64,000 nt of DNA from Patescibacteria group bacterium (GTDB taxonomy: Bacteria > Patescibacteriota > Patescibacteriia > Patescibacteriales > UBA12465), in the NCBI GenBank assembly GCA_041651195.1, contig JBAZJR010000003.1, forward strand, positions 82,441 to 146,440, read 5' to 3'. The position numbers were made by a program, and so were the translations under genes. Every line of letters starts with the position of its first letter. Position 1 is the stretch's first letter. Below are positions 5,771 through 51,421 of this stretch, piece by piece. Under the pieces are notes generated by a model that saw only the letters and a list, made by a program, of their open reading frames with translations, did not search any database and was not told the origin of the DNA.

Positions 5771-5795
5771 TTTCATTTTTAAATATCATTAAACT

Positions 5796-10009: not shown

Positions 10010-10217
10010 TAGGATTACGAAGTAATATTTAATTGGCTAATCACCGCCTAAATAACTCTGAATTTAAAGAAAGTGTTTGAGCGAAAATTAGCTAAATATT
10101 GGAGGTAAATCAGCTGGATAAAACAAAATAAAAAATAGGCGGAAAAAATTATTTTTTATTTTTGATTTTTTGAAGCTGGTTTAGGCAACCAGTTTTTGTT
10201 TTATAAAGGAACATTAT

Positions 10218-24420: not shown

Positions 24421-27400
24421 ATGACTGGAATAATAGAGAATAAAGGTCATAAGCTTGACAGCGAAAAAGCGGCCGAACTTATTCAGCAGTCTGCCGAAGT
24501 TGAGAATGTCGAAATGCCGGAAAGCTTGGAGCAGACAGCCCAGAAAAAAATAGACGACATTAATCAGACAGCTCTTAGTCAAGAAAAAATAGAAGATCAG
24601 GCTTCCGGGGGAATCTCGTCGCCGGATTTTTCGCCGGCGGCTGAAAAAATCGACGCTCAGCGGGTTGCCGCTATTACCGTTGGCACCGAAAATATAGAAT
24701 CGGTTGCCCAGGGCAATAGTCCTCTTTCGGCAGAAACAGCTAAAAAAGAACCTGAGCCGAAAAAAGTGACAGAATCCCAGTTGAAGTCTGATTTGGAGGC
24801 AATCAAAGATTATCATAATCAGATTAAAGAATTAACCAGCAAGAAACGCGGCAATTACCAAAAAGATAAGATTATTGTGGATCAGATTCACACAATCAAA
24901 GGCAAGCTAGAGGCAGAGTTCGGTTTGGATAAGTATTCGCCCTCTTTCAATGTCATGAGCAAGGCCTATCAGGAAAATATCAATGTAATTCCCGATGAGC
25001 CAGAATCAGGACCGGTCGCAACAGCCGACTCGCTGTCTAAGATGGGCCGGCAAGATTTGGAAAATATCAAGATCAAAGAAGGGAAAATCCAGGGAGTCGA
25101 GTATAAAGAATTAAAATATGCCCGAGAGAATTTACAAGAGGAATTATCATCCTTGGTAGAATCATTAGTATCAACAAAAATAAATAATGATTTTGAAGGC
25201 AGAATAGAGGCTTTGGCTAATAAGACCGGTTTGAGCCCGGAAGCCCTCAGAGAGATCTGCCAGGATCAGGAAGCAGCTATTGTTGCTGAAGCCAAAGGAG
25301 AATTAAGCAAGAACAGCGGTTTTTGGAAAAAGGCAGCTAATATAGGAATCACCTCTTCGGTTTATATCGGCGCCGGTATATTAGCCGGGACTTCAATCGC
25401 CGCGACTTTGGGTCTCGGCGGCTTGGCCGGCATGTCGATAATCGGCGGAGCCAGAATCGTCGATCGCTCAATTCGCGAATATATCGGAAAGAATAAGCTC
25501 GATAAAAAAGTAGCGGAAATAAAAGGCTATAAGACCGAGGCGGACAAGACAGCTTTGCAGGATCGTCTGGCCGCAGCCATCAGCTTGAAGAAGACTCTGG
25601 AGATAGATCGGGTCGACTTGAAAGATCAGGAAGCGCGCGCCAAGCTTATTGATAATTATATTGATGAACAAGCCGCGGCCGGCCTGTCGCCGGTCCAGCC
25701 AGAAGAACTAGCCGGCTATAAGGAGAAGATGGCCAGGATACTTAACGGTTTAGACGATATTGATCGTCTAAATGATCAGCAGGAGCAAAAGCTTAATAAA
25801 TCAGGTATATTAGGCAAGCTCCAAAAGGTTGAAAAATTTATTTCCGGCGATTCCGCGGCCGGTCGAACCAGTACCGCCGCCGTCTTTGTCGGCTTAGGCT
25901 TTGTTGCCAGACAGGTCCCGATAGTGCGCCAAGTATTGGCCGGTTATGCCGGTTATCGTTTCGGCGCAGTGATAGGTGATTCGATTTTGGACAGGAAGAA
26001 AAAAGGTTTGGCGGAAAATACAGACGGGGCAGTCACGGCTGAAAATTATGCGACGCTGCGTCAGCGGTTGCTGGATCAGGATTTCCAGAAGAGCAAGCCG
26101 GAAGAATTCATTAAATTGCGGCAGGCAGTAGCGGCTTTTGAAGATCAACAAGCGACATCGGCCGATGGGCATAAGTTGTCTGAATTAAATGAACAGCTGC
26201 AAGATGGACTGCTTAAGAGTCAGGAAAAGAGCGCCTACAAGAAGCTCAAGAAATTCGCTTTCCGGGCCGGCGGCGCCGTCTTGGGCGCCATAGGCGGGGA
26301 AGCCTTGCATGATGTATTAAGCCATAAGCCGACGGCTGGCGGCGGCAATATGGTTGAAACCGCCAACGCTAAGGGGAGTCTTAAGGGAGTGAGCGTTGAT
26401 GATATCCTCAGCCGCGGACAAAAAGGGGTTATAGAGACGGTGCGCATGGATGAGGCTGTTGCTGATGCCTCTAGTTCTAAAGGCAGCGTAGATGTCGATG
26501 AGATGTTGGCGCGCAGCCAGCAAAGTGATTACGTATCTCCAGAAAATAATATTCCCAGCAGCGATAAATCGCATTTATTCGAAGATGTTGTGTCCAATAA
26601 GGATCTTAAACCTGGCCAGCATGATTCGCTTTGGCGTTCCACTGAACAGATTTTCAAGAATCATGCCTCGGAGCTGGGCTATAAAGGTGATATGAGCGAC
26701 AAAACCGCTCTGGAACACTGGGCGCAGGGTCAGACGGCCAAGACCTTAAATAATTCCGGTGATCTGTTGGACAAGGTTTATGAGGGTAATAAGATAATTA
26801 TAGAACAAGATGAAACCGGCAATTATCGTATTCATGTTGAACAAGGGGAAGGTCTTGAACCTGGTCATTTGGAACATCCGGTTAAATCCGGTGGCGCGAA
26901 TTTAGATGAAAATATGGTAAAAGGCAGCTCTAAATATGACGCTGAAGAAATCGCTAGGAATTTGAAAGATAGAGCTTTCGATCCAAGCGGCCGAAACCCG
27001 TATGATATTAATACCGGCCTCCATCATGATCCGATGGCGGTAGAAGCGGGAAGCGCCGATTCGGGGACTCATGATCTTGGCGACGAGCTACATGAAATGA
27101 ATAAAACCCTGCATGGCCAGACCGATATCAAATCTCCGCTTTATCCCGATCCTTTCTCCTTTTCTGCCGAGCAAGCCGTCCATCCGGTTGAGCATCCTTC
27201 CCCACACGTTGATCATTCTGTCTCTGGCGGGAAGGGGACAGAGTCTGATATTAAGGTAGATAAGCCGGTCGAGGTCATACCGCCCAAGAATCAGTCGCTA
27301 GTAGAGAATTTAGAAGGATCCGGTGGCGGCAATAAGACTATTGATTCTATTGCGGCGCTGAAAGATATGCCTAATGGCGCGAAGATACCGGTCGGCGAGC

Positions 27401-27678
27401 TGACTCTAGTTAAGCAGGATAATCGTTATAATTTTACTAATGCCCAAGGAGAGACGATTAAGATGACTATCAATAAATTTGGCGGATTCGGCCAGAATGA
27501 TAGATTTGGCATCATCAGAGATGGCCGCATTTTAGATGGCAAATTATTGTCTGAGGCAATCCCTCTCAAACAGACGATTTATAATAATCTGCCTGATAAG
27601 CAATCGGCTTTAGCTAAGGAATTGCTGGAGGAGATAGCTAAAAATAAGGAAGAGGTAGAATTTTTATCAGGATTTTAA
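24421..27678 (+). CDS. giant hypothetical coiled-coil/membrane protein (1085 aa)
   Basis: Long ORF. Gly/Ala-rich hydrophobic segments (GITSSVYIGAGILAGTSIAATLGLGGLAGMSIIGG; AAVFVGLGFVARQVPIV) embedded in charged coiled-coil-like sequence. Confidence 0.65.
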   Translation: MTGIIENKGHKLDSEKAAELIQQSAEVENVEMPESLEQTAQKKIDDINQTALSQEKIEDQASGGISSPDFSPAAEKIDAQRVAAITVGTENIESVAQGNSPLSAETAKKEPEPKKVTESQLKSDLEAIKDYHNQIKELTSKKRGNYQKDKIIVDQIHTIKGKLEAEFGLDKYSPSFNVMSKAYQENINVIPDEPESGPVATADSLSKMGRQDLENIKIKEGKIQGVEYKELKYARENLQEELSSLVESLVSTKINNDFEGRIEALANKTGLSPEALREICQDQEAAIVAEAKGELSKNSGFWKKAANIGITSSVYIGAGILAGTSIAATLGLGGLAGMSIIGGARIVDRSIREYIGKNKLDKKVAEIKGYKTEADKTALQDRLAAAISLKKTLEIDRVDLKDQEARAKLIDNYIDEQAAAGLSPVQPEELAGYKEKMARILNGLDDIDRLNDQQEQKLNKSGILGKLQKVEKFISGDSAAGRTSTAAVFVGLGFVARQVPIVRQVLAGYAGYRFGAVIGDSILDRKKKGLAENTDGAVTAENYATLRQRLLDQDFQKSKPEEFIKLRQAVAAFEDQQATSADGHKLSELNEQLQDGLLKSQEKSAYKKLKKFAFRAGGAVLGAIGGEALHDVLSHKPTAGGGNMVETANAKGSLKGVSVDDILSRGQKGVIETVRMDEAVADASSSKGSVDVDEMLARSQQSDYVSPENNIPSSDKSHLFEDVVSNKDLKPGQHDSLWRSTEQIFKNHASELGYKGDMSDKTALEHWAQGQTAKTLNNSGDLLDKVYEGNKIIIEQDETGNYRIHVEQGEGLEPGHLEHPVKSGGANLDENMVKGSSKYDAEEIARNLKDRAFDPSGRNPYDINTGLHHDPMAVEAGSADSGTHDLGDELHEMNKTLHGQTDIKSPLYPDPFSFSAEQAVHPVEHPSPHVDHSVSGGKGTESDIKVDKPVEVIPPKNQSLVENLEGSGGGNKTIDSIAALKDMPNGAKIPVGELTLVKQDNRYNFTNAQGETIKMTINKFGGFGQNDRFGIIRDGRILDGKLLSEAIPLKQTIYNNLPDKQSALAKELLEEIAKNKEEVEFLSGF

Positions 27679-27764: not shown

Positions 27765-28073
27765 ATGACTAACAATAACTTTTCTCCGTCGCTAGAGCAG
27801 TTCGTTAGCCGTTTGTTGGAAGAAAAAAAACTGGTGAGTCTAGAGCTGGAGGTCCTTAAGCAGGCTAAAGAGGATCTCTTAAGCAAGGCTGAGGATAAAG
27901 TTAAGGCGGCGATTTTTGATAATATCCCAGGAGATAAATTAGAGGAGTTCAGCCGTGTGATGGAAGCGAATGATGAGGCGAAATTACAGTCTTTTATCCA
28001 GGCGGCCGTACCCAATTTGGAGCAGGTAGTCGCCCAAGCCTTGCTGGAATTCCGTACCGCCTATTTAGGCTAA
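27765..28073 (+). CDS. hypothetical protein
   Basis: 102 aa ORF, helical/charged. Confidence 0.35.
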   Translation: MTNNNFSPSLEQFVSRLLEEKKLVSLELEVLKQAKEDLLSKAEDKVKAAIFDNIPGDKLEEFSRVMEANDEAKLQSFIQAAVPNLEQVVAQALLEFRTAYLG

Positions 28074-28299: not shown

Positions 28300-31200
28300 A
28301 TGTCAAAATTTTACTCTGGCTTAAAAAAGTTTTTTAACCTAAAGGAAGACGCTCAGAAGCAAAGGGCGACTGAAATAGAAGTCGAGCCGAGCCAACCGGC
28401 AGTGGAGGAAAAGCTAGTCGAGACCGAAATGAAAATCAAGAGCCAGGAATTATCTCCAGCCGCTATTGATATTCAGGGATTATCTGATGATAAGAAGCCG
28501 ATTGTCGCGGCGACGCTAGGTCGAGCGGATTCGGAGCTTGTCGCCGCCAAGCAGGATTCTTTAGGTAGTCTGTCCGAGATTAAAAAATTAAGTTTTACAG
28601 CCGGCGTAGTAGATACTTCAGATATTTTACGGAGTCGAGCCTATCGGGTAGCTTCGGAACAGATGACGGCTGAGAAAGGCGAGCTGAAAGGCTTCAAAGG
28701 TATCCTGAAGAAGATCTGGAAGTATAATTATGCGGAAAATTATTTGCACGGCAAAGCTCGGGTAGAAATAAAGAAAAAGATGGTCGAAAGCGATAATCTG
28801 TATATTGGCGAGAAGCTGAGCCCGTCCGAGCAGGCGGCCGCTAATGCCGATTTCCAGGCCGCGACTCTGTCCCGCTTCACTTCCGAGATCAAGGAAATGG
28901 TCGAAGAAAATCTGGGAGAAAAGAAAGAGGAGCTTAAGGATAGCCCGGAAACCAAGAAGATAAAAAGTGACCTAAAAAAGATCATTAACGATTATGCGGA
29001 CGGCCGCTTGGATCAGGCGGGATTCGAAGGCGCGAAGCGGACTATTTTTGCCGCGATTGAGGGCAGCCAAGACCAGACTACGATCAAGAAGAGCGAGATG
29101 TATGTCGATAATTTCTTGGCAATCGCCGTGCAAGTTAAAGAGATCAAAGACAATATCCGCTTGGCCGCCGACCACCAGGCGAAACTAGCCCAGTTTGATT
29201 TTGATATTAATTTGGTCTTGGGAAAAGCAAAAGAGGGGGTCAAGACCGAAACCCATTATAATCTAGCGGAAAGGACCGTGGAAAGATTGCGCCAGACAAA
29301 GTTAGGTAGTCTAGTCAATGAGACGACTTTAGCGGCGGCCGTCGGCCTGACCTATTCGGCCGGCTCCTTCGTGTCCCAGCGCGTGATCCGTTCCAAAGCT
29401 TTAGCGATCGGCACCTTAGGCTTAGCGGCCGGCGTGTCTGGCGCTTATGCCGGCGTCAAGGAAAGCCAGATGCAGAAGCGGGAGCGGCAGACTTTAGAGG
29501 CGCGCACGGCGATTCAGACCTTGAATATCCAAGTAGAAAAAAATCGTCTCGCTAGCGAAATAACAGCTCTAGAAAGCGCCCGACAGAGCTCTAGCAATCC
29601 CAAGGAGCTACAAAAGATCAAGAAGAGCATCAAGGCTTTAGAGCAGGAGCAGGAAAAACTAGAGTCTCAGGAAAAGTTTCTGTACGAGAAGGTTACGGCG
29701 AATGAATTAAATGCTAATTTGGACAAAGCTTTAGAAAAACAACTGCAATCCGCTCCAGAAGTAGACGCGCTTTTAGATAATTTAGCTGATATTGAGGCGC
29801 GCTTGGAACTTTCCAATGAACGGAAGATAGATTTGATCAGCTATTCCAGCCTGACCAGCGTGGAAAAGGAGCGGCAGAAATTACTTCAGTCCAAATGGCA
29901 GGCGAAACAGAAGTTAGCCAGCTTGCCAGCGGGTATCGCTCAGGATTGGGAGAAACGGCTGAAAGATCTGACGACTCTGCATCGCGGCGCGCTCTTGGAC
30001 GATGAAAAAGGCGGCATCAAACAGAAAGATAAGGAATTCAATAAGCATAAGAACAAGGAAGTTTTTAAGAAAGTAACGCAGAACCTGATTATCGGCTTGA
30101 CGGTCGGCGCTGCGGCGCAGGAAGGCTTTGCTCTCTTGAGCGATAAGCAGGAAGGCCTGGTCGAGAATCTGATCAAAGGCAATGACCGGGCGATCGGCAG
30201 CCGTGATACGGCGTTAGAAACTTTAAAGAATTTTATCACCGGTAACGCCAGTGCCGGCAAGTTGCACGAAATAGCTATCGATAATGGCCTGATCAAGATG
30301 CCGGCTAATTGTAATTGGCTGCCTAATCCGGACGGCTCTTTCAATCTCGTGCGCGGATCAGAGGTTTTAGCCGAACACCTAACAGTCAATCCGGACGGAT
30401 CCTTGACTGAAGAAGCGAAAGGCGTCTTGGCAGCAGAAAATATTCAGGCCAATGTTAGCCAGTATGTGATCCAACCGGGCGAGACGGTGACCGCGGCCAC
30501 CCAGACCGGGCCAGCCGACTATATTGCTAAGCATCCCGAGAGCTTTAAGCAGGTCAGCCGCGAGTTATGGTATGCCAATGACACCCCGATGTATATGGGC
30601 GAGGATGGCAAGCTGCATGGCGCGGATTTGAACGAATTGCGGGAACAATGGGGCGGCGATCGCGGCTCGGGCATCAACCTGAAGACTAATAGCTATGAAA
30701 TGACGGCTTTCAAGATGACGCCGGACGGCTCATTCGAAACCGTGGGCGGCACTAAATTGAGCGAGAACGCCGCGGAGCTTATCAAGGAAGGGAAGATGAA
30801 ATTCCTATTCTCCCTATCTGACGGCACTCAGGATCAGGTCATTGAAATCCCAGTCGATCCGGCGACCGGCAAAATCAGCGTGGAGCGCGAGAGCGACCTG
30901 GGCAGGCTATTGTTCGGTGAAAAGGACGGGCGCGCCGTCCTGAAGGCACGCTTTTCCGAGGTAGCAGTTTCCGCTGGCTTGGGCAAGGATGGAGTCGAGA
31001 AAGTACATGTTTTCGCGACTGCGGTTGGTGAGGGTCTAAAGGAGATTGATGAGAGCGTCGTGACTAATGTGCCGCCGCACATGGGGACGGCGACCGCATT
31101 AGACATCCCGCGAGAAACAGATCTGCCGCCCTTTGTCCCGATCGGCTGGCGGAAGCCTTTGGAGCCGGTAAAGAAGAAAACAAAACCAGGAGTGCCGCCG

Positions 31201-33012
31201 GTCCCGACTCTGATGCCCAGCTCTTATTACGACCGTTATTATGGAGGCAAGCAAAAAGAAGATTATGTCGATCTTAATCGTTATCGGGCGTCGTCGGGTA
31301 ACGCCAATCTATTAGCGGCGCGATTCGGCTTGACGCCGGAGTCGGCTCAGGCCACGAAGCCGGACTCAGAGTCGGGGGTTAATATAGCAGAAGATAATCA
31401 GGATTCCGATGCTGAAGACAACGCCAAACTTAAAGCCAGAGGATTAAACGTTACCCTGGACAGGGAAGATAATAGCGCCATCCTCAAGAACGACGCCAAA
31501 TCTAAACGGAAGGGCTTGCGTATTACCTTAGATAGAGAAGACGCCTATAATCCGGGCAATCAGAATAAAACGGACGTGATCGATTTACAGGGCTATAAAG
31601 ATAAGAGCAGCGAAGAAGGAAAAGAGGCAGCGGCAGCCGAAAAGCGCCAGAAATATTCTTTTATTTTTGATCAATTAGCCGTACTCCAGAATTATGATCA
31701 GCAGAGTGACAAGGTAAAAGCCAAGATCAATAAAGATTGGGATCATTTCAACAAGCAGCGCCATAGCGGCAGCCCCTTGAGCCTCAATGAATATATCGGT
31801 CAGCAGATCACCCGGCTTTATCATCAGATCGACAATGTCTTGATGAGTGAAGCTAAGGTGGGAGACAAGCCCTTCAGTCCCGAATTCTATCAGAACGCTC
31901 CTTTAGTCAAGGGCTTGGAACGGGCGCAAGAGGTAGTTATCATCTTGGATACGCCGATTGGCGACGCGGTATTGACCATCCCAGCTCTACTGGCTGTCCA
32001 GAAGTATTTGGAACTCAATAAGATGAATAAGCCGATCAAGTTGGTGACCAGTCCGATGGGCATGGATCTTTTCAAATGCATGAAAGACCAATTTCCTAAG
32101 GATGTAGAATTGATCAACTATGAAGAAATGGGTTCGGCTTTCGCCAATGACAAACAGGAAAAGTTTGTCATCAATGCTCATAAAGACTTTAAAGACTATG
32201 CCTCGCTGAATTTACAGGACGGCGATAATAAAGATCTTTCCCGCGTCATGTCTGTAGCCTGGGATAGCTGGACTAAAGAGGAGGTGCCGAAAAGAGCCGG
32301 CTTCTTGGAAAAATATGATGCTATTCCCGCCCGGATCATGAGAAATTTTGAAAATATGTTCGGCCAGAAACTGTTCGGGGATATCAATAAGATGGACCAT
32401 TACCTGGGAAAAAACAAGGATTTCGATAAAGTTTCGACTGAACTGAAAGATAAATATAAGATCAAGCCAGACGAGCAGATAGTAGTCATTTCGGCCGGGT
32501 CATCCGTTCAGCCCAAAGAATATGAGCCGGAAAAATGGGAGAAAGTTATCGATGATACTATCCAGAAATATCCGAAAGCGCACATCCTATTCTTGCAAGA
32601 TCCTAATCCAGAACGGTGGGCCAGATATAGTCCGATGATAAATAAGATCACCAGTCAAAAGAGCGGCCGCTTTGACGTCGTGGCTGAGCCGACCTCGCGC
32701 TTGAACGCCATGATGTCTATGGCTGATGTCACGGTGACTCCCGATACGGGCCTAGGTCATTATGCCAGCGCCTTGGGTCGGCCGAATATCATGTTAATCT
32801 TGGGTGATCCGGTACGCTGGTCAAATGCCAAGACGGATCGGATCATGCATAAAAAAGCTCGAGAAACTTATGCTAAGAATGCCGGGACTTATTCTATCGC
32901 CTGGACAGCGGATGCTGGTTACTATGTTAATGATAGAGGGGAGATGATAGGCTCATCCAATCTTGATCCGGCGCTGATTAATCAATCTCTGGAAAAATAT
33001 CTGAAAAAGTAA
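28300..33012 (+). CDS. giant hypothetical protein (1570 aa) with C-terminal glycosyltransferase family 9 (heptosyltransferase-like) domain
   Basis: N-terminal about 1200 aa charged/coiled-coil with Gly/Ala-rich hydrophobic segments analogous to the upstream giant protein. C-terminal about 360 aa: VVIILDTPIGDAVLTIPAL (GT9 N-terminal motif) and TSRLNAMMSMADVTVTPDTGLGHYASALGRPNIMLILGD (GT9 C-terminal donor-binding motif). Confidence 0.65.
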   Translation: MSKFYSGLKKFFNLKEDAQKQRATEIEVEPSQPAVEEKLVETEMKIKSQELSPAAIDIQGLSDDKKPIVAATLGRADSELVAAKQDSLGSLSEIKKLSFTAGVVDTSDILRSRAYRVASEQMTAEKGELKGFKGILKKIWKYNYAENYLHGKARVEIKKKMVESDNLYIGEKLSPSEQAAANADFQAATLSRFTSEIKEMVEENLGEKKEELKDSPETKKIKSDLKKIINDYADGRLDQAGFEGAKRTIFAAIEGSQDQTTIKKSEMYVDNFLAIAVQVKEIKDNIRLAADHQAKLAQFDFDINLVLGKAKEGVKTETHYNLAERTVERLRQTKLGSLVNETTLAAAVGLTYSAGSFVSQRVIRSKALAIGTLGLAAGVSGAYAGVKESQMQKRERQTLEARTAIQTLNIQVEKNRLASEITALESARQSSSNPKELQKIKKSIKALEQEQEKLESQEKFLYEKVTANELNANLDKALEKQLQSAPEVDALLDNLADIEARLELSNERKIDLISYSSLTSVEKERQKLLQSKWQAKQKLASLPAGIAQDWEKRLKDLTTLHRGALLDDEKGGIKQKDKEFNKHKNKEVFKKVTQNLIIGLTVGAAAQEGFALLSDKQEGLVENLIKGNDRAIGSRDTALETLKNFITGNASAGKLHEIAIDNGLIKMPANCNWLPNPDGSFNLVRGSEVLAEHLTVNPDGSLTEEAKGVLAAENIQANVSQYVIQPGETVTAATQTGPADYIAKHPESFKQVSRELWYANDTPMYMGEDGKLHGADLNELREQWGGDRGSGINLKTNSYEMTAFKMTPDGSFETVGGTKLSENAAELIKEGKMKFLFSLSDGTQDQVIEIPVDPATGKISVERESDLGRLLFGEKDGRAVLKARFSEVAVSAGLGKDGVEKVHVFATAVGEGLKEIDESVVTNVPPHMGTATALDIPRETDLPPFVPIGWRKPLEPVKKKTKPGVPPVPTLMPSSYYDRYYGGKQKEDYVDLNRYRASSGNANLLAARFGLTPESAQATKPDSESGVNIAEDNQDSDAEDNAKLKARGLNVTLDREDNSAILKNDAKSKRKGLRITLDREDAYNPGNQNKTDVIDLQGYKDKSSEEGKEAAAAEKRQKYSFIFDQLAVLQNYDQQSDKVKAKINKDWDHFNKQRHSGSPLSLNEYIGQQITRLYHQIDNVLMSEAKVGDKPFSPEFYQNAPLVKGLERAQEVVIILDTPIGDAVLTIPALLAVQKYLELNKMNKPIKLVTSPMGMDLFKCMKDQFPKDVELINYEEMGSAFANDKQEKFVINAHKDFKDYASLNLQDGDNKDLSRVMSVAWDSWTKEEVPKRAGFLEKYDAIPARIMRNFENMFGQKLFGDINKMDHYLGKNKDFDKVSTELKDKYKIKPDEQIVVISAGSSVQPKEYEPEKWEKVIDDTIQKYPKAHILFLQDPNPERWARYSPMINKITSQKSGRFDVVAEPTSRLNAMMSMADVTVTPDTGLGHYASALGRPNIMLILGDPVRWSNAKTDRIMHKKARETYAKNAGTYSIAWTADAGYYVNDRGEMIGSSNLDPALINQSLEKYLKK

Positions 33013-33162: not shown

Positions 33163-34467
33163 ATGTCAAGAGTATCAATCTCAGAAGCTAAAAAACAGGG
33201 GGCTGGCCAGGTCACAGTCGCCGGCTGGGTGCGCAATATCCGAGCTCATAAGGGAGTGGCCTTCGTCGATCTGTGCGATTTGTCGGGCGCGATGCAAGTC
33301 GTCTTTGCCGGCGATAATGAAGTTTATGCTAGGGCTGAGAAATTACGGTTGGAAAGCGTAATCGAAGTTACCGGTCTTTTGCAGACCAGGCCGCCCAAGA
33401 AGAATGACCCCAATCCGACGCCGGATTTTGAATTAGCGGCTAGCGCGCTCCAGGTCGTTTCTTTAGCTGACGAAAATCTGCCGATCCCGGTCTTGCTCAA
33501 GGGCGATAATGAAGCTAGTTTGGATAATCGCCTTGATTGGCGCTGGCTGGATCTGCGGCAGGAGAAGAACCAGATGATCTTCAAAACTTGGACTAAATTA
33601 GAGGAGGGCTTCCGCGAGTATTTTTCCCGGCAAAATTTCATCCAGGTCTATACTCCTTGCCTGATGAGCACTTCTTCGGAAACCGGTTCCGAGGTTTTTG
33701 AAGTAAAATATTTTGAAAAGAAAGCTTATTTATCACAGTCGCCGCAATTCTACAAGCAGATGGCGATGGCTTCCGGTTTGGAAAAAGTTTTTATGGTCGG
33801 GCCGGTCTTCCGCGCCGAATTATCTTTTACGACCCGGCACGTGACGGAGTTCACCGGCTGGGATTTTGAGGTTTCTTATCCTGATTCTCATTTAGACGTG
33901 ATGGCGATCGAAGAGGATCTTCTGATTTCGGGATTCAAGAAAGTCAAAGAAGACTTAGGGCTCGATTTAGCCGTGCCGACGAAGCCTTTCCCGAAGATCA
34001 CGCTCGCCGAAGCGAAAGAAAAATTGAAAGCGGCCGGCGTGACCGGCGAGAAAGAATTTGATTTTTCGACCGAAGAAGAGAAGGAGCTCGGTGAGATCAT
34101 CAAGCGGGAAACCGGGCATGATTTCGTCTTCGTGACCGATTATCCGATCGAGGCCCGCCCTTTCTACCATATGCGTCATGCTGATCAGCCGAATCTGACC
34201 AAGAGTTTCGATCTCTTATATCGTGGCTTAGAAATAACGACCGGGTCGCAACGCGAGCACCGCGTGGAAGTTCTAGAGAAACAGGCGATCGAAAAGGGAA
34301 TGAGTTTGGAAGAATTGAAAGATTATTTGAATTTTTTCCGCTATGGCTGCCCGAGCCATGGCGGCGCGGGAATCGGCCCGGCGCGTATTATCATGAAGAT
34401 GCTGGACTTAAGCAGCGTCAAAGAGGCCTGTTTCTTGCCGCGAGATGTGAAACGGCTGACGCCGTAA
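33163..34467 (+). CDS. aspS: aspartate--tRNA ligase, archaeal/short type (class IIb)
   Basis: 434 aa. N-terminal OB anticodon-binding domain (VAGWVRNIRAHKGVAFVDL). FRAE..TRHVTEFTGWDFE motif 2, GGAGIGPARI motif 3. No GAD insertion domain; length fits archaeal-type AspRS. Confidence 0.75.
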   Translation: MSRVSISEAKKQGAGQVTVAGWVRNIRAHKGVAFVDLCDLSGAMQVVFAGDNEVYARAEKLRLESVIEVTGLLQTRPPKKNDPNPTPDFELAASALQVVSLADENLPIPVLLKGDNEASLDNRLDWRWLDLRQEKNQMIFKTWTKLEEGFREYFSRQNFIQVYTPCLMSTSSETGSEVFEVKYFEKKAYLSQSPQFYKQMAMASGLEKVFMVGPVFRAELSFTTRHVTEFTGWDFEVSYPDSHLDVMAIEEDLLISGFKKVKEDLGLDLAVPTKPFPKITLAEAKEKLKAAGVTGEKEFDFSTEEEKELGEIIKRETGHDFVFVTDYPIEARPFYHMRHADQPNLTKSFDLLYRGLEITTGSQREHRVEVLEKQAIEKGMSLEELKDYLNFFRYGCPSHGGAGIGPARIIMKMLDLSSVKEACFLPRDVKRLTP

Positions 34468-34540
34468 GGATCGCGCCCCGGAAGGAATAAGGCGCGCCGA
34501 AACTAGCCTGTCTAGCCGAGCAAATTAACGCCATTTTATT

Positions 34541-35932
34541 ATGCCTATCATCTTAATTAAATCATTATATCGTTCTACCGCGGAATATTTAAATAAAGAG
34601 ATTATGGTCGCCGGCTGGGTGCGCACCGCGCGCAGTTCTAAGGATTTTGGTTTCATCGAGATCAACGACGGCTCTTTTTTCAAGGGCTTGCAGGTCGTTT
34701 TCGCCTCTGACCTGGCGAATTTTTCCGAAATAGAGCATATCAGCGTCGGTTCTTCACTGGAAATAGAGGGGACATTAGTAGAATCTCCGGCCGCCGGCCA
34801 GGCCTTCGAGCTCAAAGCGACCAAGATTACGATCATCAACCTGGCGCCAGCCGACTATCCGCTCCAGAAGAAGAAGCACAGCTTTGAATTCTTGCGCACG
34901 ATCGCCCACCTGCGCGGCCGCAGCAATACTTTTTCCGCGGTTTTCCGCCTGCGCTCCGTCCTGAGCTTCGCGATCCATAAATTTTTCCAAGAAGAAGGCT
35001 TCAGCTATATCCAGACCCCGATAATTTCCACGAGCGACTGCGAAGGCGCCGGTGAGATGTTTCAGGTGACGACCTTAGACCTCAAGAAGCCGGCCCGGGA
35101 TGAAAAAGGGGAGACGGATTATGCCGCTGATTTCTTCGGGAAAAAAGCGGGCTTGACCGTGAGCGGCCAGCTCAATGCCGAGGCTCTGGTGATGGGATTG
35201 AATAAGGTTTATACTTTCGGTCCGACTTTCCGGGCGGAAAATTCCAATACGACCAGGCACGCCTCGGAATTCTGGATGATGGAGCCGGAAATGGCTTTTG
35301 CCGACCTGAATGATGATATGATGCTAGCCGAGAAGATGCTGAAGTATCTGATCGCTCATATCCTGAAAGAATTGCCGGAAGAGATGGAATTCTTCAATAA
35401 ATTCATTGATCCGGGCATCGCGGAGCGCTTGAATAATATCTTGAACTCTGAATTCGGACGCGTTACTTATACGGCCGCGATCGAAATATTAGAAAAGTCT
35501 GGCGAAAAATTTGTCTTTCCGGTCAAATGGGGGATCGATCTGCAGACGGAACACGAAAGGTATCTGACCGATAAAGTCTACCAGAAACCGGTCTTCGTCA
35601 CCGATTACCCGAAGGATATCAAGGCTTTCTATATGCGCTTGAACGAAGACGGGAAGACGGTCGCGGCGATGGATCTGCTCGTGCCTGGCATCGGCGAGAT
35701 CATCGGCGGCAGCCAAAGGGAAGAACGTTTGGAATATCTGGAGAAACGGATGGGTGAGATGGGCCTGAAAAAGGAAGATTACGCCTGGTATCTGGATTTG
35801 CGTAAATACGGTTCGGTCAAACATGCCGGTTTCGGCTTAGGCTTTGAGCGCCTGATCATGTATCTGACCGGTATGGCGAACATTCGTGACGTGATCCCGT
35901 TCCCGCGGACGCCGAAGAACGCGGAATTTTAA
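34541..35932 (+). CDS. asnS: asparagine--tRNA ligase
   Basis: 463 aa. C-terminus [36 protein letters not shown], nearly identical in pattern to E. coli AsnRS C-terminus. [11 protein letters not shown] motif 2. Confidence 0.85.
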
Positions 35933-44194: not shown

Positions 44195-44266
44195 TCCCGG
44201 GTAGCGCAGCGGTAGCGCAGTTGGCTGTTAACCAATTGGTCGTCGGTTCGAATCCGACCCCGGGAG
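44195..44266 (+). tRNA. tRNA-Asn (anticodon GUU)
   Basis: Cloverleaf folded by hand: acceptor TCCCGGG/CCCGGGA, D-stem GCGC with GG loop, anticodon stem GTTGG/CCAAT with loop CTGTTAA (anticodon GTT), T-arm GTCGG-TTCGAAT-CCGAC, discriminator G. Confidence 0.9.
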
Positions 44267-44267
44267 C
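44247..44267 (+). repeat. attL core: 3' end of tRNA-Asn, direct repeat of 51422-51442
   Basis: 21-nt TTCGAATCCGACCCCGGGAGC identical at both sites. Confidence 0.85.
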
Positions 44268-44276
44268 ATAGAAAAG

Positions 44277-44304
44277 ACGAGAGTAAAATCTCGTTTTTTC
44301 TTTT
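44277..44304 (+). terminator. tRNA terminator hairpin
   Basis: ACGAGA-GTAAAA-TCTCGT followed by TTTTTT. Lies between tRNA end and integrase stop codon. Confidence 0.5.
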
Positions 44305-44306
44305 GT

Positions 44307-45449
44307 TCACGGGCGTATTTCTCGTTTTGACCAATCGGAATTTTGAACCCCCAAATTCTCGATTGTGACGCTATTGTGCCGTAAGTTTATAACTTGTGGC
44401 GTTTCTAACACTTTTATTGCGTCTCTTAAAGTGTGTTGTCCTAAATGCGCATAACGCATAGTCGTTCTAATGTCCGAGTGACCCATTAACTCTTTTATAG
44501 CGGTCATAGAGACCCCTTTCTCGGCTAATCGGGAGGCAAAGGTATGTCTGAGCTTATGCCAACCGATTTGGCGTAATTTTGCCTTATCACAAATCATGTG
44601 AATATTTGTCCGAGAGCATTCCGGTCGAAATCTTAATCCGTCCGGGCCTTTCAAAACAAAACCCTCTTTCGGCGATAAAGCGATTAGGTGATTATACAGG
44701 TCTTGCGTCATGGGAATATATCTAATCTTATTGCCTTTAGTCGAGCCTAAAACTCCGACCGAGAAATTGTCTTTGACTATAACTTGCTTTTTAAGGAAAT
44801 CAATCTTTTCCCAATTTAAGGCCATGAGTTCGCCGATACGCATTCCGGTATGTAGAGCCAAGAGAATCGCTGTCTTATAAGGCTCGGAAGCGGTCGCCAG
44901 TAAGCGATTAGCCTCTTCCTCGTTTAAGTAATCAAACTCTTCCGGGTCAGAGCGCAGAGGTCGAATTATTGGCACTTTATCTAGTTCGCCCCATTCGACA
45001 GCCGTTTTAAGACATTTCGCTAAAGTTCCCATTTGGCCGTTAATAGTTTTAGGCTTTAACCTTTTTAATTGCAGAGCTTTAAACTCTTCAATATCGAGGC
45101 TAGAAATCTCGTCTAATCTTTTTTTGCCGAAGAACGGCAAGAGGCATGATCTTAGATAAGTCTTTTTATTCTTAATTTCCGAGGGCTTATTATTAACTTC
45201 GACATACGACTTAACCCATTTTTCGGAAAATTCTTTGAGGGTTAAACATTTCCTTTTTTCTTTCGGAAATAAATCTTCGCCCCTGGTTAGCCGTTGCCTT
45301 AAAACCGCTTCATAAAATTGAGCCCCGGATCGAGTATTGGTTGGACTCGGTAGGCGGTATCTTCGCGCCTTAAAGCTGAAGTCCACCCACCATTTATTTG
45401 CACGCTTGATTGCACTCATAAATAATTTACTTAAATTTTTAAGGAGCAA
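44307..45449 (-). CDS. tyrosine-type site-specific integrase (phage integrase family)
   Basis: C-terminal catalytic box HTGMRIGEL...HKLRHTFASRL...GHSDIRTTMRYAHL (R..H..R..Y). 3' end abuts tRNA-Asn. Alternative start at Met11 (45419). Confidence 0.9.
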   Translation of the reverse strand: MLLKNLSKLFMSAIKRANKWWVDFSFKARRYRLPSPTNTRSGAQFYEAVLRQRLTRGEDLFPKEKRKCLTLKEFSEKWVKSYVEVNNKPSEIKNKKTYLRSCLLPFFGKKRLDEISSLDIEEFKALQLKRLKPKTINGQMGTLAKCLKTAVEWGELDKVPIIRPLRSDPEEFDYLNEEEANRLLATASEPYKTAILLALHTGMRIGELMALNWEKIDFLKKQVIVKDNFSVGVLGSTKGNKIRYIPMTQDLYNHLIALSPKEGFVLKGPDGLRFRPECSRTNIHMICDKAKLRQIGWHKLRHTFASRLAEKGVSMTAIKELMGHSDIRTTMRYAHLGQHTLRDAIKVLETPQVINLRHNSVTIENLGVQNSDWSKREIRP

Positions 45450-45598
45450 TACAAGAGCGCGGGGGTTCGCGTCAATTATTATTACTTTATCACAGGCTCT
45501 TAATTGCTGTCTATTTTAGGAATTATCTTGAAAATAGACACTTTGGTTCTTAAGTGTGCATATAATCAAGTTAATGATGTATATATTATTAAATTAGG

Positions 45599-45632
45599 AT
45601 TAGACCTTGCTTAGCCAAGCGTTAGGTCTAAT
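45599..45632. repeat. hairpin (8-bp stem ATTAGACC/GGTCTAAT)
   Basis: Inverted repeat in int-cargo intergenic region. Confidence 0.4.
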
Positions 45633-45644
45633 GTTTATCCGATC

Positions 45645-45701
45645 GCGTTTTTCTTTTTTCGGCTCGCTAGCAGAGCTCGCCGAAAAAAAGAAAAAAAGCG
45701 C
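45645..45701. repeat. long imperfect palindrome (bidirectional terminator-like)
   Basis: GCGTTTTTCTTTTTTCGGC...GCCGAAAAAAAGAAAAAAAGCGC arms around a GC core, symmetric A/T runs. Confidence 0.5.
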
Positions 45702-45726
45702 GTGCCGGAATAAACTATTAATAATC

Positions 45727-46010
45727 TAACCGATTGGGCTTGACCAAAATCTACGTAAAGATTTAGGTCAAGAAATTAGCCTTATTATTTCTAATCCTAG
45801 CAAATCAAAGTTACCGAAAGTTACGGGTAAAATTTAGGGTAAGAAAACGAGCTTATTTAATCTAATATTAAACAATCGAACTTTGACCATCTTCGGTCGA
45901 AAGAACGGTCAAAGAATTAGCTGTATTCTATTTGATGTTAGCAAAACAGGTTTGGATAAAATTTGGCTAAAGGTTTGGTCTAAGTTTTTTAATAAAAATC
46001 CAATAAAATT
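45727..46010 (+). repeat. four degenerate ~70-bp tandem repeats, each a hairpin followed by GGTCAAG-AAATTAGC-like box
   Basis: Units start about 45727, 45796, 45867, 45941. Recurring TTGACC...GGTCAAG(A)AATTAGC..TATT..TCTAAT/GTTAGCAAAA elements. Followed by strong hairpin AAACGTAAAT-GCACGTGCAG-ATTTACGTTT (46017-46046). Confidence 0.45.
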
Positions 46011-46225
46011 CTACAATATTAAAATAAACGTAAATGCACGTGCAGATTTACGTTTAGTTTTTAGGCTTATTTTTGATCTAATTTTTTTGACTTTTGAGAT
46101 CCTGGGTGGTATATTTTAAGTATATTTTTAGTGTTATCAGGGGCATGTCAATGCCTATTTCGAGGGATTAGTTCTAATTGGTTTGTTGATCGAAATAAAA
46201 TTAGCAAAAAGAATTCTTAAATTAT

Positions 46226-47758
46226 ATGAAAAAACAAACACTATCAAATGAGGCAACCGTAGTGAAGGCTTTAAAAGTCAATCAATGGCTTGATGTTTGG
46301 AAATCGGTTGATTTTGCTAAAAAAAATCATCGCAGAGAACCTGAAAAATGTTTTTACATTTTTTCATTATCTGCCAGACAGTTGCGCTCTTTGTCTGGAG
46401 TAAATCGTAGAGACGTAAAAGATGGGGTAAAAAGATCTCGCGATTTAGGAATACAGCGAGCTCATGAGCAATCTCGTTCTAGGAATATTGCTGAGTATAT
46501 TAAATATGGTTACCCATGGTCAGATTTAAGTAAATCTCAACGTGAAGATATTAGATTTAATGATCTCCGCAAACCAGGTTGGTTGCCAACTGCTATTGTG
46601 GTAAATATATTAACAAAAGATGACAGACGTAATGGGTTAGGTGTTGCGTCAAAGGATTTAATAACTATAAATAATAATGATAATAATGAATTTGTAGAAA
46701 TTAAAATACCAATGTCAAAGAGTAATAAGAAGTGGATCTCTGAGCAGGTTTTACCCCTAGAAGTTATTGATGGCCAACATAGATTACTGGCCTTTGATGA
46801 AAATATCGATGAAGATTATGAATTGCCGGTTGTTGCTTTTTATGGTTTAGATTTGAGCTGGCAAGCATATTTATTTTGGACTATAAATATAAAACCAAAA
46901 AGAATTAATCCCAGTCTTGCTTTTGATTTATATCCTCTTTTACGCACTGAAGATTGGTTAGATAGATTTGAAGGACATAAAGTTTATCGAGAAGCAAGGG
47001 CTCAAGAAATAGTAGAATCACTATGGTCTGAACCAATGAGTGCTTGGTATCATCGTATAAATATGTTAGGAGAAAGCGGGATTGCTTCCGTCACTCAGGC
47101 AGCCTGGATAAGAGCATTACTAAAAACATATATTAAAACTTCCGAAGGTAGAGGGGTAACTATAGGGGGTTTATTTGGGGCTCCGGCTGGTCACGATGAA
47201 ATGACTATACCTTGGAATCGTAGTCAACAGACCGCTTTATTAATTTATCTTTGGAATTCCATAGAAAAATTTACTAAAGAAACGTCGGCACTATGGACAA
47301 AAAAAATAAGAGCAACTGAATACAAACGTAAAATAAAAGGTGATCCAGCATTTTCTGGGCCGCATACACTTTTAAATAATGATCAAGGTATTTCAGTTGT
47401 TCTTAATATTTCAAATGACCTATTATTTTTAAATGCGGAAACGCTACAGCTTAAAAAATGGCGAGTTAGTCAAGAGTTTGGAGTATCAGAGGCCCTTGAA
47501 GATTTAATTAAAAAACAAAAAGATATTATTTTGTTTGTGAATAAAATTGCAAAAGCATTTACAACTTTTGACTGGAGATCTTCTGGGGCGGAAAAACTTA
47601 CAGACTCCGAAAGAACTCTTAAACTTTCATTTCGCGGCGGTAGCGGCTACAGAGAGTTTAGACGATTATTGCTTAAACATTTAATGAAAAATAGCGATTT
47701 AGCCGCCGACGCAAAGACAATTTTCAATAATCTTGGATTTGAGGAAGACTCTAATTGA
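46226..47758 (+). CDS. DGQHR-domain protein (DndB-like, ParB/Srx-fold superfamily)
   Basis: Exact DGQHR motif at residues 182-186 (nt 46769-46783) in context PLEVIDGQHRLLAF. 510 aa. First gene of island cargo operon. Confidence 0.65.
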   Translation: MKKQTLSNEATVVKALKVNQWLDVWKSVDFAKKNHRREPEKCFYIFSLSARQLRSLSGVNRRDVKDGVKRSRDLGIQRAHEQSRSRNIAEYIKYGYPWSDLSKSQREDIRFNDLRKPGWLPTAIVVNILTKDDRRNGLGVASKDLITINNNDNNEFVEIKIPMSKSNKKWISEQVLPLEVIDGQHRLLAFDENIDEDYELPVVAFYGLDLSWQAYLFWTINIKPKRINPSLAFDLYPLLRTEDWLDRFEGHKVYREARAQEIVESLWSEPMSAWYHRINMLGESGIASVTQAAWIRALLKTYIKTSEGRGVTIGGLFGAPAGHDEMTIPWNRSQQTALLIYLWNSIEKFTKETSALWTKKIRATEYKRKIKGDPAFSGPHTLLNNDQGISVVLNISNDLLFLNAETLQLKKWRVSQEFGVSEALEDLIKKQKDIILFVNKIAKAFTTFDWRSSGAEKLTDSERTLKLSFRGGSGYREFRRLLLKHLMKNSDLAADAKTIFNNLGFEEDSN

Positions 47759-47773
47759 TATATATACAACATA

Positions 47774-49141
47774 ATGGCCATAAATCCGCTTAAAGAATCT
47801 CTAAGAAATGCTTCTCGTGACTCTATTAAAGAGGCGATTAAAAATCTTCGTCCTCATTTTTTGTCTGGGCAATGGATTGGAACAGGTAATATTTATGCTA
47901 AATATTATAAAACGAATGCCTATAAAGATCTTCTTACGCGACGTTCTAGTTTAAAAGATAAACAAATTAAGGATTATATCGCGGCATCTGTTTTTAACCA
48001 TTGTGGCGATGGTTGGAGTCTGCTTGGACGAGCGCTTAGTCTACATATTAAGGGGGATGGTAATAGCTCTATTCATCTTGCTTATTATGCTGAACTAAGA
48101 GCAGCGATGTCTTTACTCGCATCTGAAGGTATCGGTGTTTTTAACAACCGACATGTTATTGTAAAAGATGGGGCTGTTGATCTTACTCCAAGTCTCAAGA
48201 GAAAAAATCGTAGTCTAGGAAGGACACATCAATTTGTTTGGATGGCCCTAGAACATTGGACAGATAGAAGATTATCAGCGGATACATTGGCTAATATCAT
48301 TTGTCCTGGATCAATTACTCTTTTTGAATGGTTAGATGCTTTCGGTGTTGCCAATAACATTCATCCAATTGGTAGCAAGTGGATGAGGTTATGGGGCATT
48401 GATATTAAACAATTCGGTGACGACCAAATATTACGAAATTATTCCAGTTATAGACCATCTAGAATACTTCCAAAATCAAATACAACCGCCCCACATTCGC
48501 TTGCTTTTTTTAGCGAACTTTGGCGTATGTGTGAGCCAAGCCCGTCATCCAGATTTAATGAAATTGATAAACATCTTTTAAGATCTAGTTTGTCACAAGC
48601 GTATAAGGCGGTATATGGTATAGAGCCTCACACGTCGACAAATCTAGATGATTATAGGGCTTGGATTGAAAAAAAAATTATAACTCTCAACTTCTCAGCG
48701 CCAGTACAAAAAGAATGGGTTAATTTTCTTACATGGGCCATACAGCCAGATGACTCAAAAATTATTGAGGAAGCGGGTAAGTTTACTTCTGTTGATGATC
48801 CAAGCCATCATTTACAAGTACTCGCAAGAGCTACACTTTTATTAAGAATTTCTACTGGTATTAACGCAAAGTTACTTAAGGAGGCCGGTTTTACAAAAAA
48901 AGATTTAGAATTTTGGTGGGGACCGTATGCTGTCGATAATGGAATAATTAAAAATGCTGGCGCTATATCTAATTTTTTAGATCTTTGGGATGATGTTAAT
49001 ATAGCTCTTCAAGATATAATGGTTTGGGAAAAATCACAAAGTAAAAATTATACTTATAGCGATTTAGTAATGGATATCTCTAAGCCAATTTTAAGATTAA
49101 GTGAGTGTGAGCGAATATCTCTGTGGGGTCTAGGAATATGA
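47774..49141 (+). CDS. hypothetical protein (455 aa), partner of DGQHR protein
   Basis: 15 nt after previous stop. Stop overlaps next start (ATGA at 49138-49141). No motif recognised. Confidence 0.5.
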   Translation: MAINPLKESLRNASRDSIKEAIKNLRPHFLSGQWIGTGNIYAKYYKTNAYKDLLTRRSSLKDKQIKDYIAASVFNHCGDGWSLLGRALSLHIKGDGNSSIHLAYYAELRAAMSLLASEGIGVFNNRHVIVKDGAVDLTPSLKRKNRSLGRTHQFVWMALEHWTDRRLSADTLANIICPGSITLFEWLDAFGVANNIHPIGSKWMRLWGIDIKQFGDDQILRNYSSYRPSRILPKSNTTAPHSLAFFSELWRMCEPSPSSRFNEIDKHLLRSSLSQAYKAVYGIEPHTSTNLDDYRAWIEKKIITLNFSAPVQKEWVNFLTWAIQPDDSKIIEEAGKFTSVDDPSHHLQVLARATLLLRISTGINAKLLKEAGFTKKDLEFWWGPYAVDNGIIKNAGAISNFLDLWDDVNIALQDIMVWEKSQSKNYTYSDLVMDISKPILRLSECERISLWGLGI

Positions 49142-50337: not shown

Positions 50338-50342
50338 AATTT

Positions 50343-51221: not shown

Positions 51222-51421
51222 CTATTTATAAAATAAACACGATTCTACCACCTCCTCTTGTATTGCTAGCGAAACAAAAAGTTGTGACGCTATTGTGACT
51301 GAAAAGTGGTAAAATCGTGATATTTCGGACTAAAACTGGTTAATCAAAAAAGTTAAAATATTCTCTAATGCTAGTAAAAATTTGCTAACATTAAATCATA
51401 TATAAAAATCTCGATTTTGTT

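Follow-up and report, generated by a model that had tools for sequence, protein, structure and literature searches.

The described proteins closest to the subject of this report are the glycosyltransferases of CAZy family GT9 (Pfam PF01075), which include WaaC and WaaF of lipopolysaccharide (LPS) core synthesis and the Veillonella protein of PDB entry 3TOV. The autotransporter heptosyltransferases TibC and AAH, also GT9-like, act in the cytoplasm on a large partner protein and provide a precedent for a protein acceptor other than LPS. In the Rhs, CdiA and LXG polymorphic toxins, a conserved N-terminal body ends at a sharp boundary motif, beyond which unrelated C-termini are swapped by recombination. 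The wall-teichoic-acid glycosyltransferases of Staphylococcus aureus include the GT-A enzymes TarS and TarP and the GT-B enzyme TarM, which give strain-variable surface chemistry. The gene described here shares features with each of these systems. It is the longest open reading frame (ORF) of a 64-kb stretch of contig JBAZJR010000003.1 from a Patescibacteria metagenome-assembled genome (MAG), a stretch referred to below as the window. The gene encodes a conserved scaffold of about 950 amino acids (aa) joined to a GT9 domain, and this C-terminal part is a cassette that has been exchanged by recombination inside the gene. A small gene for a DUF5663 protein lies next to it.

The GT9 domain has the GT-B fold, the GD motif and the sequences K-x-[YW]-x-P-E-x-W and D(T/S)(G/A)XXH in common with WaaC, WaaF and 3TOV. 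It differs from those enzymes in being longer by about 60 aa and in the 1190-aa N-terminal region to which it is attached. TibC (4RB4) is reached only at fold rank 46 with a TM-score of 0.52. It is a separate, dodecameric, iron-containing protein according to its PDB title, and no autotransporter was seen in the window. The architecture resembles that of Rhs, CdiA and LXG proteins, but in the present family no cognate immunity gene was seen in the one pair open to this check, there is no known trafficking domain, the enzyme classes are few and recurring, and the spread covers many Patescibacteria classes. Alternation between GT-A and GT-B enzymes is similar to that among TarS, TarP and TarM, a functional analogy that lies behind the platform role proposed below. 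The S. aureus enzymes are separate, soluble proteins encoded at different loci, whereas here the cassettes are carried on one scaffold.

The ORF runs from 28300 to 33012 on the forward strand, begins with ATG and encodes 1570 aa. An identical protein (P0001), encoded on a 153-kb contig, is present at NCBI as 'glycosyltransferase family 9 protein [Patescibacteria group bacterium]', so the GT9 call itself is already known from the database name. The first-pass annotation, made from the letters of the window, had described a single 1570-aa protein with a C-terminal GT9 domain. This description is borne out by the continuous ORF, the Pfam match, the AlphaFold2 (AF2) model, the fold matches and the signature residues. 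The parts of the module, in window coordinates, are listed here; pLDDT is the predicted local distance difference test score of the model.

27765-28073, + strand: DUF5663 partner gene, 102 aa, acidic, predicted helical; Pfam PF18908
28300-33012, + strand: whole gene (scaffold, linker and GT9 cassette), 1570 aa
28300-28581, + strand: variable charged N-terminus without signal peptide, residues 1-94; phmmer matches mostly begin at about 95-105
28582-29304, + strand: conserved N-terminal alpha/beta domain, residues 95-335; AF2 secondary structure, pLDDT mostly >90
29323-29457, + strand: hydrophobic Gly/Ala-rich bilobed pair, H1 (residues 342-360) and H2 (367-386); hydropathy kept family-wide
29458-30081, + strand: long-helix stalk, residues 387-594; AF2 helices, contains the conserved block ARLELSNERKIDLISYS
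30082-30138, + strand: third hydrophobic segment H3, residues 595-613; internal conserved Q-E
30202-31125, + strand: beta-rich domain, residues ~635-942; AF2 strands, motifs WYxNDT and NELxxxWGGxxGxG
31126-31167, + strand: boundary motif PPFVPIGWRKPLEP, residues 943-956; end of scaffold and start of cassette
31168-31653, + strand: low-complexity linker, residues 957-1118; two copies of a short motif
31654-31863, + strand: segment before GT9, residues 1119-1188; conserved in GT9-type relatives
31864-33009, + strand: GT9 (GT-B) domain, residues 1189-1570; Pfam, AF2, fold search and motifs
31954-31977, 32509-32538 and 32740-32760: key GT9 sites, respectively D1222 in PIGDAVLT, K1406 in QPKEYEPEKW and D1482 to H1487 in PDTGLGH

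The variety of the C-terminal cassettes is evident from 164 family members, a sample biased to relatives of the window scaffold, whose tails were clustered. GT-A-like tails predominate (121 proteins), followed by GT9 (20, or about 12%), a third type (six) and a few singletons that are Pro-rich or DnaJ-like. The GT-A-like tails reach 22.3 bits with Pfam Glycos_transf_2, just under the cutoff, and in some of these proteins a protein-kinase domain or DUF362 comes next. Tails of the third type have no Pfam match; in P0161, P0017 and P0125 they carry motifs resembling those of DHH phosphoesterases by eye (H..PD.DA, DTS, DHHG). The tail of P0161 also has a metallophosphatase-like GDxxG...GNHD stretch. 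At one locus (L030), a GT-A cassette is fused to the scaffold and the third type is found as a separate downstream gene.

Similarity between the window protein and its GT-A-bearing relatives stops at about residue 950, which is where the boundary motif lies. The R..PL core of this motif is near-invariant in an 82-sequence alignment, and a strict regular expression for the full motif, PPFVPxxxRxPLE, is matched by 80 of 166 sequences. Scaffolds that carry GT9 do not form a clade. Their nearest scaffolds often bear GT-A instead, as in the pairs P0056/P0058 (93% identity), P0003/P0006 (84%) and P0055/P0091 (73%).

The first of these pairs captures the exchange in detail. Over residues 1-517, P0056 (GT9) and P0058 (GT-A) hardly differ, and a high level of similarity extends to about residue 818. 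Their similarity ends right past PPFLPLPWxRRPLE and resumes for the last 19 residues. The two contigs (L063 and L064), which stem from separate samples within a single project, are collinear to the left and right of a 1.5-kb block that is not homologous; they share the 3' end of Map and the DUF5663 gene upstream and the start of NDK downstream. The scaffold portions of these genes (L063 490-4509, L064 7069-11121) are themselves a recombination mosaic between two populations that are nearly identical. Codons 1-517 have a synonymous divergence (dS) of 0.20 and a ratio of nonsynonymous to synonymous divergence (dN/dS) of 0.025, and codons 518-818 have a dS of 1.41 and a dN/dS of 0.085; both parts are under purifying selection. 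The breakpoint of the mosaic falls just after H3, which suggests that the beta-rich domain moves together with the cassette. L063 and L064 are the sole pair in which an immunity-like gene co-varying with the cassette could be checked for, and none is present: the flanking genes are conserved.

A second comparison involves the window itself. The locus L008, from a related MAG, shares with the window the order Map-RecO-DUF5663-scaffold ... asparaginyl-tRNA synthetase (AsnRS), and the two are 84% identical over the short intergenic stretch that follows the stop codon. The L008 protein (1755 aa) ends in GT-A plus a kinase, and the window protein ends in GT9. Because the two loci are syntenic and differ in the cassette, the window cassette can be placed at about residues 957-1570 (31168-33009). 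Its GC content at third codon positions (GC3) is 0.53, compared with 0.59 for the scaffold, a modest gap that is not used as evidence here. The linker that opens the cassette holds the repeats noticed at first pass, GLNVTLDRED at residues 1048-1057 (31441-31470) and GLRITLDRED at residues 1072-1081 (31513-31542); the orthologs P0002-P0005 have one or two copies of this motif.

The first-pass annotation had quoted two GT9 segments, and both are present, namely IILDTPIGDAVLTIPALL with PIGDAVLT (residues 1219-1226) and PDTGLGH (1481-1487). Of the follow-ups it proposed for this domain, a search with Pfam Glyco_transf_9 (PF01075) scores above the gathering cutoff of 22, with 31.4 bits for the whole protein and 33.8 bits (E 2.8e-8) for the C-terminal 380 aa. 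This match spans profile positions 101-208 of 247, which is the C-terminal Rossmann half only. The other, an AlphaFold model of the C-terminal domain, came out confident. The AF2 model of residues 1189-1570, whose input was an alignment of 17 homologous domains (A1), has a pLDDT of 89.9 and a predicted TM-score of 0.88. PDB ranks 1-9 in a Foldseek search with it are all GT9 proteins (3TOV, WaaF 1PSW, and WaaC 6DFE, 2H1H, 2H1F and 2GT1), with E-values of 1e-11 to 1e-9 and target-normalised TM-scores of 0.57-0.69. Other GT-B enzymes, UDP-GlcNAc 2-epimerases, occupy the following ranks. Identity to the solved GT9 structures is 11-16%. Sequence and model together point to a genuine GT9-type GT-B glycosyltransferase fold.

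Residues expected of an active heptosyltransferase are also in place. The signature D261(T/S)(G/A)XXH266 in WaaC numbering (PMC3559599) is present as D1482-T-G-L-G-H1487, which a profile hidden Markov model alignment puts on WaaC residues 261-266. Its D, T, G and second G are invariant in the 17 domains and H1487 is kept in at least 90% of them. WaaC uses D13 as catalytic Asp, and roles for K192 have also been described (PMC5713226). The candidate equivalents were assigned by motif-level alignment rather than structural superposition. For D1222 of PIGD, whose G-D pair does not vary among the 17 domains, the counterpart in 3TOV is the LGDV motif, in an alignment with a weak domain score; for K1406 of PKEYxPExW, also invariant, it is EKRWP. 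Since the signature residues are invariant and align to WaaC and 3TOV positions, the domain looks catalytically competent from its sequence. It is, however, no ortholog of WaaC or WaaF, because its scores lie far under the cutoffs of the NCBIfam equivalogs for LPS heptosyltransferases I and II: 27.8-31.5 bits against 185.3 for TIGR02193, 15.8-18.4 against 134.6 for TIGR02195 and 17.4-21.6 against 437 for NF008204.

The first-pass annotation regarded the fusion of GT9 to a giant scaffold as unusual, yet it recurs and is no one-off. Four relatives from other assemblies (P0002-P0005, 51-70% identical) are continuous, full-length proteins that read through the scaffold-GT9 junction, and 14 further representative proteins have the same architecture. 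At least 19 fused proteins are thus known from independent assemblies. The suggested comparison of relatives for fused and split versions found both. The split form occurs in one lineage, in four independent assemblies (L001-L004), where a scaffold ORF of 1126-1132 aa and a GT9 ORF of 487 aa overlap by 20 nt. The split point is equivalent to EAKVG|DKPF at about window position 31860-31875 and reflects a one-base frame difference. In L001 this difference lies around 'GGAAAAGGTTTTCGGTAA' (9990-10025), and the GT9 ORF starts at a TTG codon within the overlap; the segment equivalent to residues 1114-1188 stays on the scaffold ORF. A further break in L002 divides the scaffold itself between two ORFs. 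A true split, translational coupling or programmed frameshifting could each account for the arrangement in L001-L004. Because it needs a TTG start inside the overlap, the split form is best regarded as derived.

Free-standing relatives of the GT9 domain, about 410 aa long and 34-37% identical, occur in another context, near a SecA-like gene, NUDIX and Mur ligases. One of them (P0167, 34% identical) has an upstream neighbour that is SecA-like by eye and is not a scaffold, which shows that this GT9 subfamily includes truly free-standing members.

The N-terminal ~950 aa of the window protein belong to a large family. An exhaustive phmmer search with residues 1-950 collected 776 clusters (50% identity) at E<=1e-3 and 445 at E<=1e-30. 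Family members are 680-2050 aa long, and scaffold identity across classes is 30-35%. Most relatives align as two stretches separated by a gap at about residues 398-445, a variable part of the stalk, and their N-terminal extensions are charged and of low complexity. A locus scan that took one genome per species and searched with a nine-sequence block from the beta domain yielded 55 loci, mostly from MAGs named Saccharibacteria/Saccharimonadia, Paceibacteria/Parcubacteria, Moranbacteria, Microgenomates, Uhrbacteria, Gracilibacteria or Minisyncoccia. Several loci are labelled Gammaproteobacteria, Bdellovibrionales or Babeliales (among them L010, on a 717-kb contig), and some bins with labels outside Patescibacteria are suspected to be mislabelled. 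Two MAGs labelled Bdellovibrionota (L061 and L062, the latter at 3272-6934) have distant homologs with 23-27% identity that share the stalk, H3 and NELxxWGG. These two lack an adjoining DUF5663 gene and have an enolase gene nearby.

The AF2 model of residues 95-950 has a pLDDT of 84.8 and consists of an alpha/beta domain with the conserved blocks WKYNxxE, RFTSE and GKAKEGVKTE, a stalk of helices over about residues 367-613, and a beta-rich domain. H2 and H3 form the two ends of the stalk, and H1 is the low-confidence part. Searches of Pfam, NCBIfam, PADLOC, PDB sequences, PDB folds and viral folds returned no match for the scaffold.

The hydropathy of H1-H3 is kept across the family, with a family mean of 1.1-1.5 on the Kyte-Doolittle scale. 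Simple 19-residue sums on the Hessa scale are about +3.4 to +6.1 kcal/mol for these segments, with medians of +6.1 for H1 and +3.8 for H2. Such values are unlike those of classical transmembrane helices. Within H3 the E is invariant and the Q is present in at least 90% of 82 sequences. Family-wide, H3 is flanked by a Lys/Arg-rich N-terminal side and an acidic C-terminal side. The first-pass annotation had described about 1200 aa of coiled-coil and transmembrane sequence. Long helices, repeats and conserved hydrophobic Gly/Ala segments are indeed there, but the transmembrane character of these segments is doubtful and the N-terminal ~950 aa are a conserved multidomain scaffold family, not a generic charged coiled coil.

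No signal-like hydrophobic stretch occurs in the first 60 aa of any of the 164 family members. At the other end of these proteins, the last 20 residues have a mean net charge of +1.8, compared with -0.39 for random windows drawn from these proteins (Mann-Whitney p 3e-24). This basic tail is strongest in the GT-A class and reaches only +1 in the window protein (…EKYLKK; 32950-33009). It is real family-wide, weak in the window protein and uninterpretable alone.

The scaffold gene and its small neighbour constitute a two-gene module, found mostly in Patescibacteria. The 102-aa ORF at 27765-28073 scores 34.6 bits with Pfam PF18908 (cutoff 23.7). Among the 44 loci with readable flanks, a DUF5663 gene adjoins the scaffold gene in 42, upstream in 39 and downstream in three, and its product can be aligned across the sampled Patescibacteria loci. 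The sole match of the DUF5663 profile is to the trigger-factor C-terminal region, at E 0.14. Foldseek/ECOD labels for a DUF5663 protein of Southlakia epibionticum, SEML1_0163, are 'trigger factor C-terminal domain' and 'LTXXQ family' (PMC10633639, supplementary file 2). These are weak hints of a chaperone-like fold rather than evidence for one.

The same organism has a 767-aa hypothetical protein, SEML1_0161, encoded directly upstream of two DUF5663 genes (PMC10633639, supplementary files). Among Patescibacteria, only this species has transposon sequencing data. In these, SEML1_0161 is classed as essential: it and the first DUF5663 gene, SEML1_0162, were scored GD/ES/ES, and the second DUF5663 gene NE/GD/GD (PMC10633639). 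SEML1_0161 may be a scaffold homolog that lacks a cassette; its gene order did not agree with that of the Saccharibacteria loci L035 and L016. If it were a scaffold homolog, the family would be required for growth on the host. DUF5663 is not mentioned in the searchable literature, which likewise holds no description of the scaffold family, of its pairing with DUF5663 or of cassette swapping, and nothing relevant for Patescibacteria together with heptosyltransferase. The family, the pairing and the exchange by recombination, at a single locus, of cassettes of the GT9, GT-A, kinase and DHH-motif types appear to be new.

As a tentative explanation, the scaffold may serve in the cytoplasm as a membrane-associated platform to which a modifying enzyme, variable between strains, is tethered. 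The protein would stay in the cytoplasm of the cell that makes it, where H1-H3, being marginally hydrophobic and glycine-rich, could keep it apposed to the membrane's inner face or partly embedded there. The DUF5663 protein would serve as a small, chaperone-like partner of the scaffold. A linker of about 160 aa would let the tethered GT9 domain move a sugar from a nucleotide-sugar donor (ADP-heptose-like by analogy only) to an acceptor positioned by the scaffold. Candidates for this acceptor are lipid or polymer precursors bound to the envelope and proteins, perhaps including the scaffold, much as TibC acts on TibA. A swap from GT9 to GT-A or kinase would then change the modification that is made and create diversity at the strain level.

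This cytoplasmic platform is favoured because the identifiable cassettes need nucleoside diphosphate sugars or ATP, there is no export signal and the hydrophobic segments are marginal. The gene context is also one of housekeeping functions (SecY, Map, RecO, aminoacyl-tRNA synthetases, ScpAB), and the DHH-motif type of cassette would be a cytoplasmic enzyme as well. Given the need for cytoplasmic cofactors and the lack of signal peptides in all 164 proteins, an enzyme exposed on the surface is unlikely, except where another cell receives it by delivery. Glycosylation localised to a structure of the cell surface, as put forward at first pass, may occur.

Several observations weigh against this explanation. 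By the positive-inside rule, the charges that flank H3 predict an orientation with the N-terminus in and the C-terminus out, and if all three segments span the membrane with H3 oriented in this way, the GT9 domain would be outside the cell. Some scaffolds end in a DHH-like, Pro-rich or DnaJ-like tail without any glycosyltransferase, and such tails fit a generic 'enzyme-delivery' role better than one in glycan building. Secreted effectors, too, typically show cassette exchange between close relatives and have a small acidic gene as partner. In addition, no LPS, ADP-heptose or other sugar-nucleotide genes were seen near the window locus or two other GT9-type loci.

Much of this evidence bears on the main alternative, which is rather unlikely overall although several features suit it no less than the platform. 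The module could be a host-directed effector platform in which the scaffold serves for export and membrane insertion, DUF5663 is a secretion chaperone and the cassette (GT9, GT-A, kinase or phosphoesterase-like) acts in or on the host cell to which the epibiont is attached, using the nucleotide sugars or ATP of the host. Moderate hydrophobicity is typical of secreted membrane-targeted substrates, and H1-H3 are only moderately hydrophobic. The predicted placement of the C-terminal part outside, the basic last 20 residues of the family and the small, acidic, helical gene that adjoins the scaffold in 42 of 44 loci, with its weak chaperone-like hints, are compatible with such a role. So are the polymorphism of cassettes at an orthologous locus in close relatives, with its recombination mosaic, the effector-like repertoire (glycosyltransferases, kinase and, by eye, a DHH-like motif) and the restriction of most named loci to Patescibacteria. 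On the other hand, no recognised secretion signal or trafficking domain was found, and the loci examined showed no linkage to type IV secretion or pilus genes other than a coupling-protein-like match in L009 that stays below threshold. The neighbourhoods are those of housekeeping genes, the scaffold is 30-35% identical across classes and under strong purifying selection, and the basic tail is weak (+1) in the window protein. Close relatives with a conserved N-terminus, unrelated C-termini and a sharp boundary motif could also be classical polymorphic toxins, in which the N-terminus governs trafficking, the C-terminus is a toxin directed at competitors and there is a cognate immunity protein. 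This is very improbable because no immunity gene co-varies with the cassette: the block exchanged between L063 and L064 is wholly intragenic, with conservation of both the last 19 codons and the NDK gene downstream. The next gene in the window encodes an aminoacyl-tRNA synthetase, and DUF5663, which is part of the conserved flank, does not change with the cassette. Furthermore, the cassettes are not hypervariable but belong to a few classes that recur in very distant lineages, and Pfam, NCBIfam and PADLOC reveal no known toxin, pre-toxin or trafficking domain.

Exchange of effector domains on a conserved body is common in defence systems too, and the scaffold might be a phage sensor with an abortive-infection effector at its C-terminus. 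The kinase tails do resemble defence-associated Ser/Thr kinases, a matter of generic domain homology, and in L022 an AbiE pair lies about 1 kb downstream. Anti-phage defence is nevertheless improbable. PADLOC has no match for the scaffold, DUF5663 or the 1570-aa protein, its only hits being generic ones to kinase domains, and the family is widespread at housekeeping sites (the same site in two syntenic pairs) rather than patchy or island-borne. The window does have a defence-type island (44-54 kb), which is separate. The GT9 Pfam match, fold and heptosyltransferase signature might suggest an ordinary LPS-core heptosyltransferase of the WaaC/WaaF type with an N-terminal extension. This can hardly be credited, considering scores far below the equivalog cutoffs, 11-16% identity to solved GT9 structures, the replacement of GT9 by GT-A at the same locus in close relatives and the lack of any LPS or heptose genes seen in the 64-kb window. 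The source is a Patescibacteria MAG, and these bacteria are regarded as monoderm and are not known to have an outer membrane or LPS. The probability that the protein is an assembly or frameshift artefact joining two genes is practically negligible. The one-base frame difference that splits L001-L004 at the equivalent of position ~31860-31875 is what might raise the suspicion. The ORF of the window is continuous, the junction region is conserved as protein (EAKVGDKPF), the split form is derived and 19 independent relatives are fused.

The surroundings of the module are those of an ordinary chromosome. The window encodes EF-G, EF-Tu, SecY, Map, RecO, two class-II aminoacyl-tRNA synthetases, ScpA/B, DnaG and RpoD. 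No secretion-system genes were seen beside the module in the loci examined, except for the sub-threshold match in L009. At this Saccharibacteria locus, a 918-aa protein encoded directly downstream of the scaffold and DUF5663 genes (4842-7595) scores 20.2 bits with TrwB_AAD_bind, a profile of type IV secretion coupling proteins for which the cutoff is 20.5, and has another sub-threshold P-loop match to HerA/DUF87.

Between RecO and DUF5663 in the window lies a 1085-aa ORF (24421-27678), which was considered as a paralog or further member of the module. It was rejected, as it has no similarity to the scaffold and is found in no other locus. It lacks a Pfam match, has Gly/Ala-rich hydrophobic segments of its own and has a GC3 of 0.47, below that of its neighbours. 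Its absence from L008 and all other loci marks it as a lineage-specific insertion. Downstream of the module (33163-35932; 9145-12375 in L008) are two tandem genes for class-II aminoacyl-tRNA synthetases of the Asp/Asn/Lys type. The second is AsnRS-like and has 81.5% DNA identity to its counterpart in L008. The first is 434 aa long in the window and 597 aa in L008, a difference in length that indicates replacement of the synthetase gene beside the cassette as well.

Elsewhere in the window, the stretch from 44195 to 54400 looks like a tRNA-targeted integrative island with restriction or defence genes. A tRNA-Asn gene (44195-44267, + strand) adjoins a tyrosine integrase gene (44307-45449, - strand), followed by a stretch with a GC content of 0.34-0.40, compared with about 0.50. 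The genes of this stretch include a DndB-like gene (46226-47758), a D12 adenine methyltransferase (49123-50337), DUF4357 (50343-51221) and several ORFs without a Pfam match. A PspC-domain membrane protein fused to a DUF2807 'adhesin head' is encoded at 56425-58362 and a ComEC-type competence channel at 990-2390; these genes may be of interest for envelope stress and DNA uptake in the source MAG.

Patescibacteria account for a large part of bacterial diversity, and the ways in which they construct their envelopes and interact with their hosts are largely obscure. The scaffold adds an unrecognised family to this picture, with 776 clusters at 50% identity. Its GT9 cassette suggests, on the grounds of sequence, that the 'LPS heptosyltransferase' family has members with roles other than LPS synthesis in a Patescibacteria MAG. 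A swap between GT-A and GT9 in near-identical backgrounds is a pattern that normally marks diversifying pressure, whether from surface chemistry or from interaction with hosts or phages. There is some chance, though not a large one, that the scaffold and DUF5663 are a phylum-wide host-interaction device specific to Patescibacteria, chaperoned and self-inserting, that delivers a strain-variable enzyme (GT9, GT-A, kinase or phosphoesterase-like) onto or into the host cell of these obligate epibionts. If so, recombination of cassettes would tune host range or host manipulation, and the module would represent a new class of effectors and a candidate basis of the epibiotic lifestyle.

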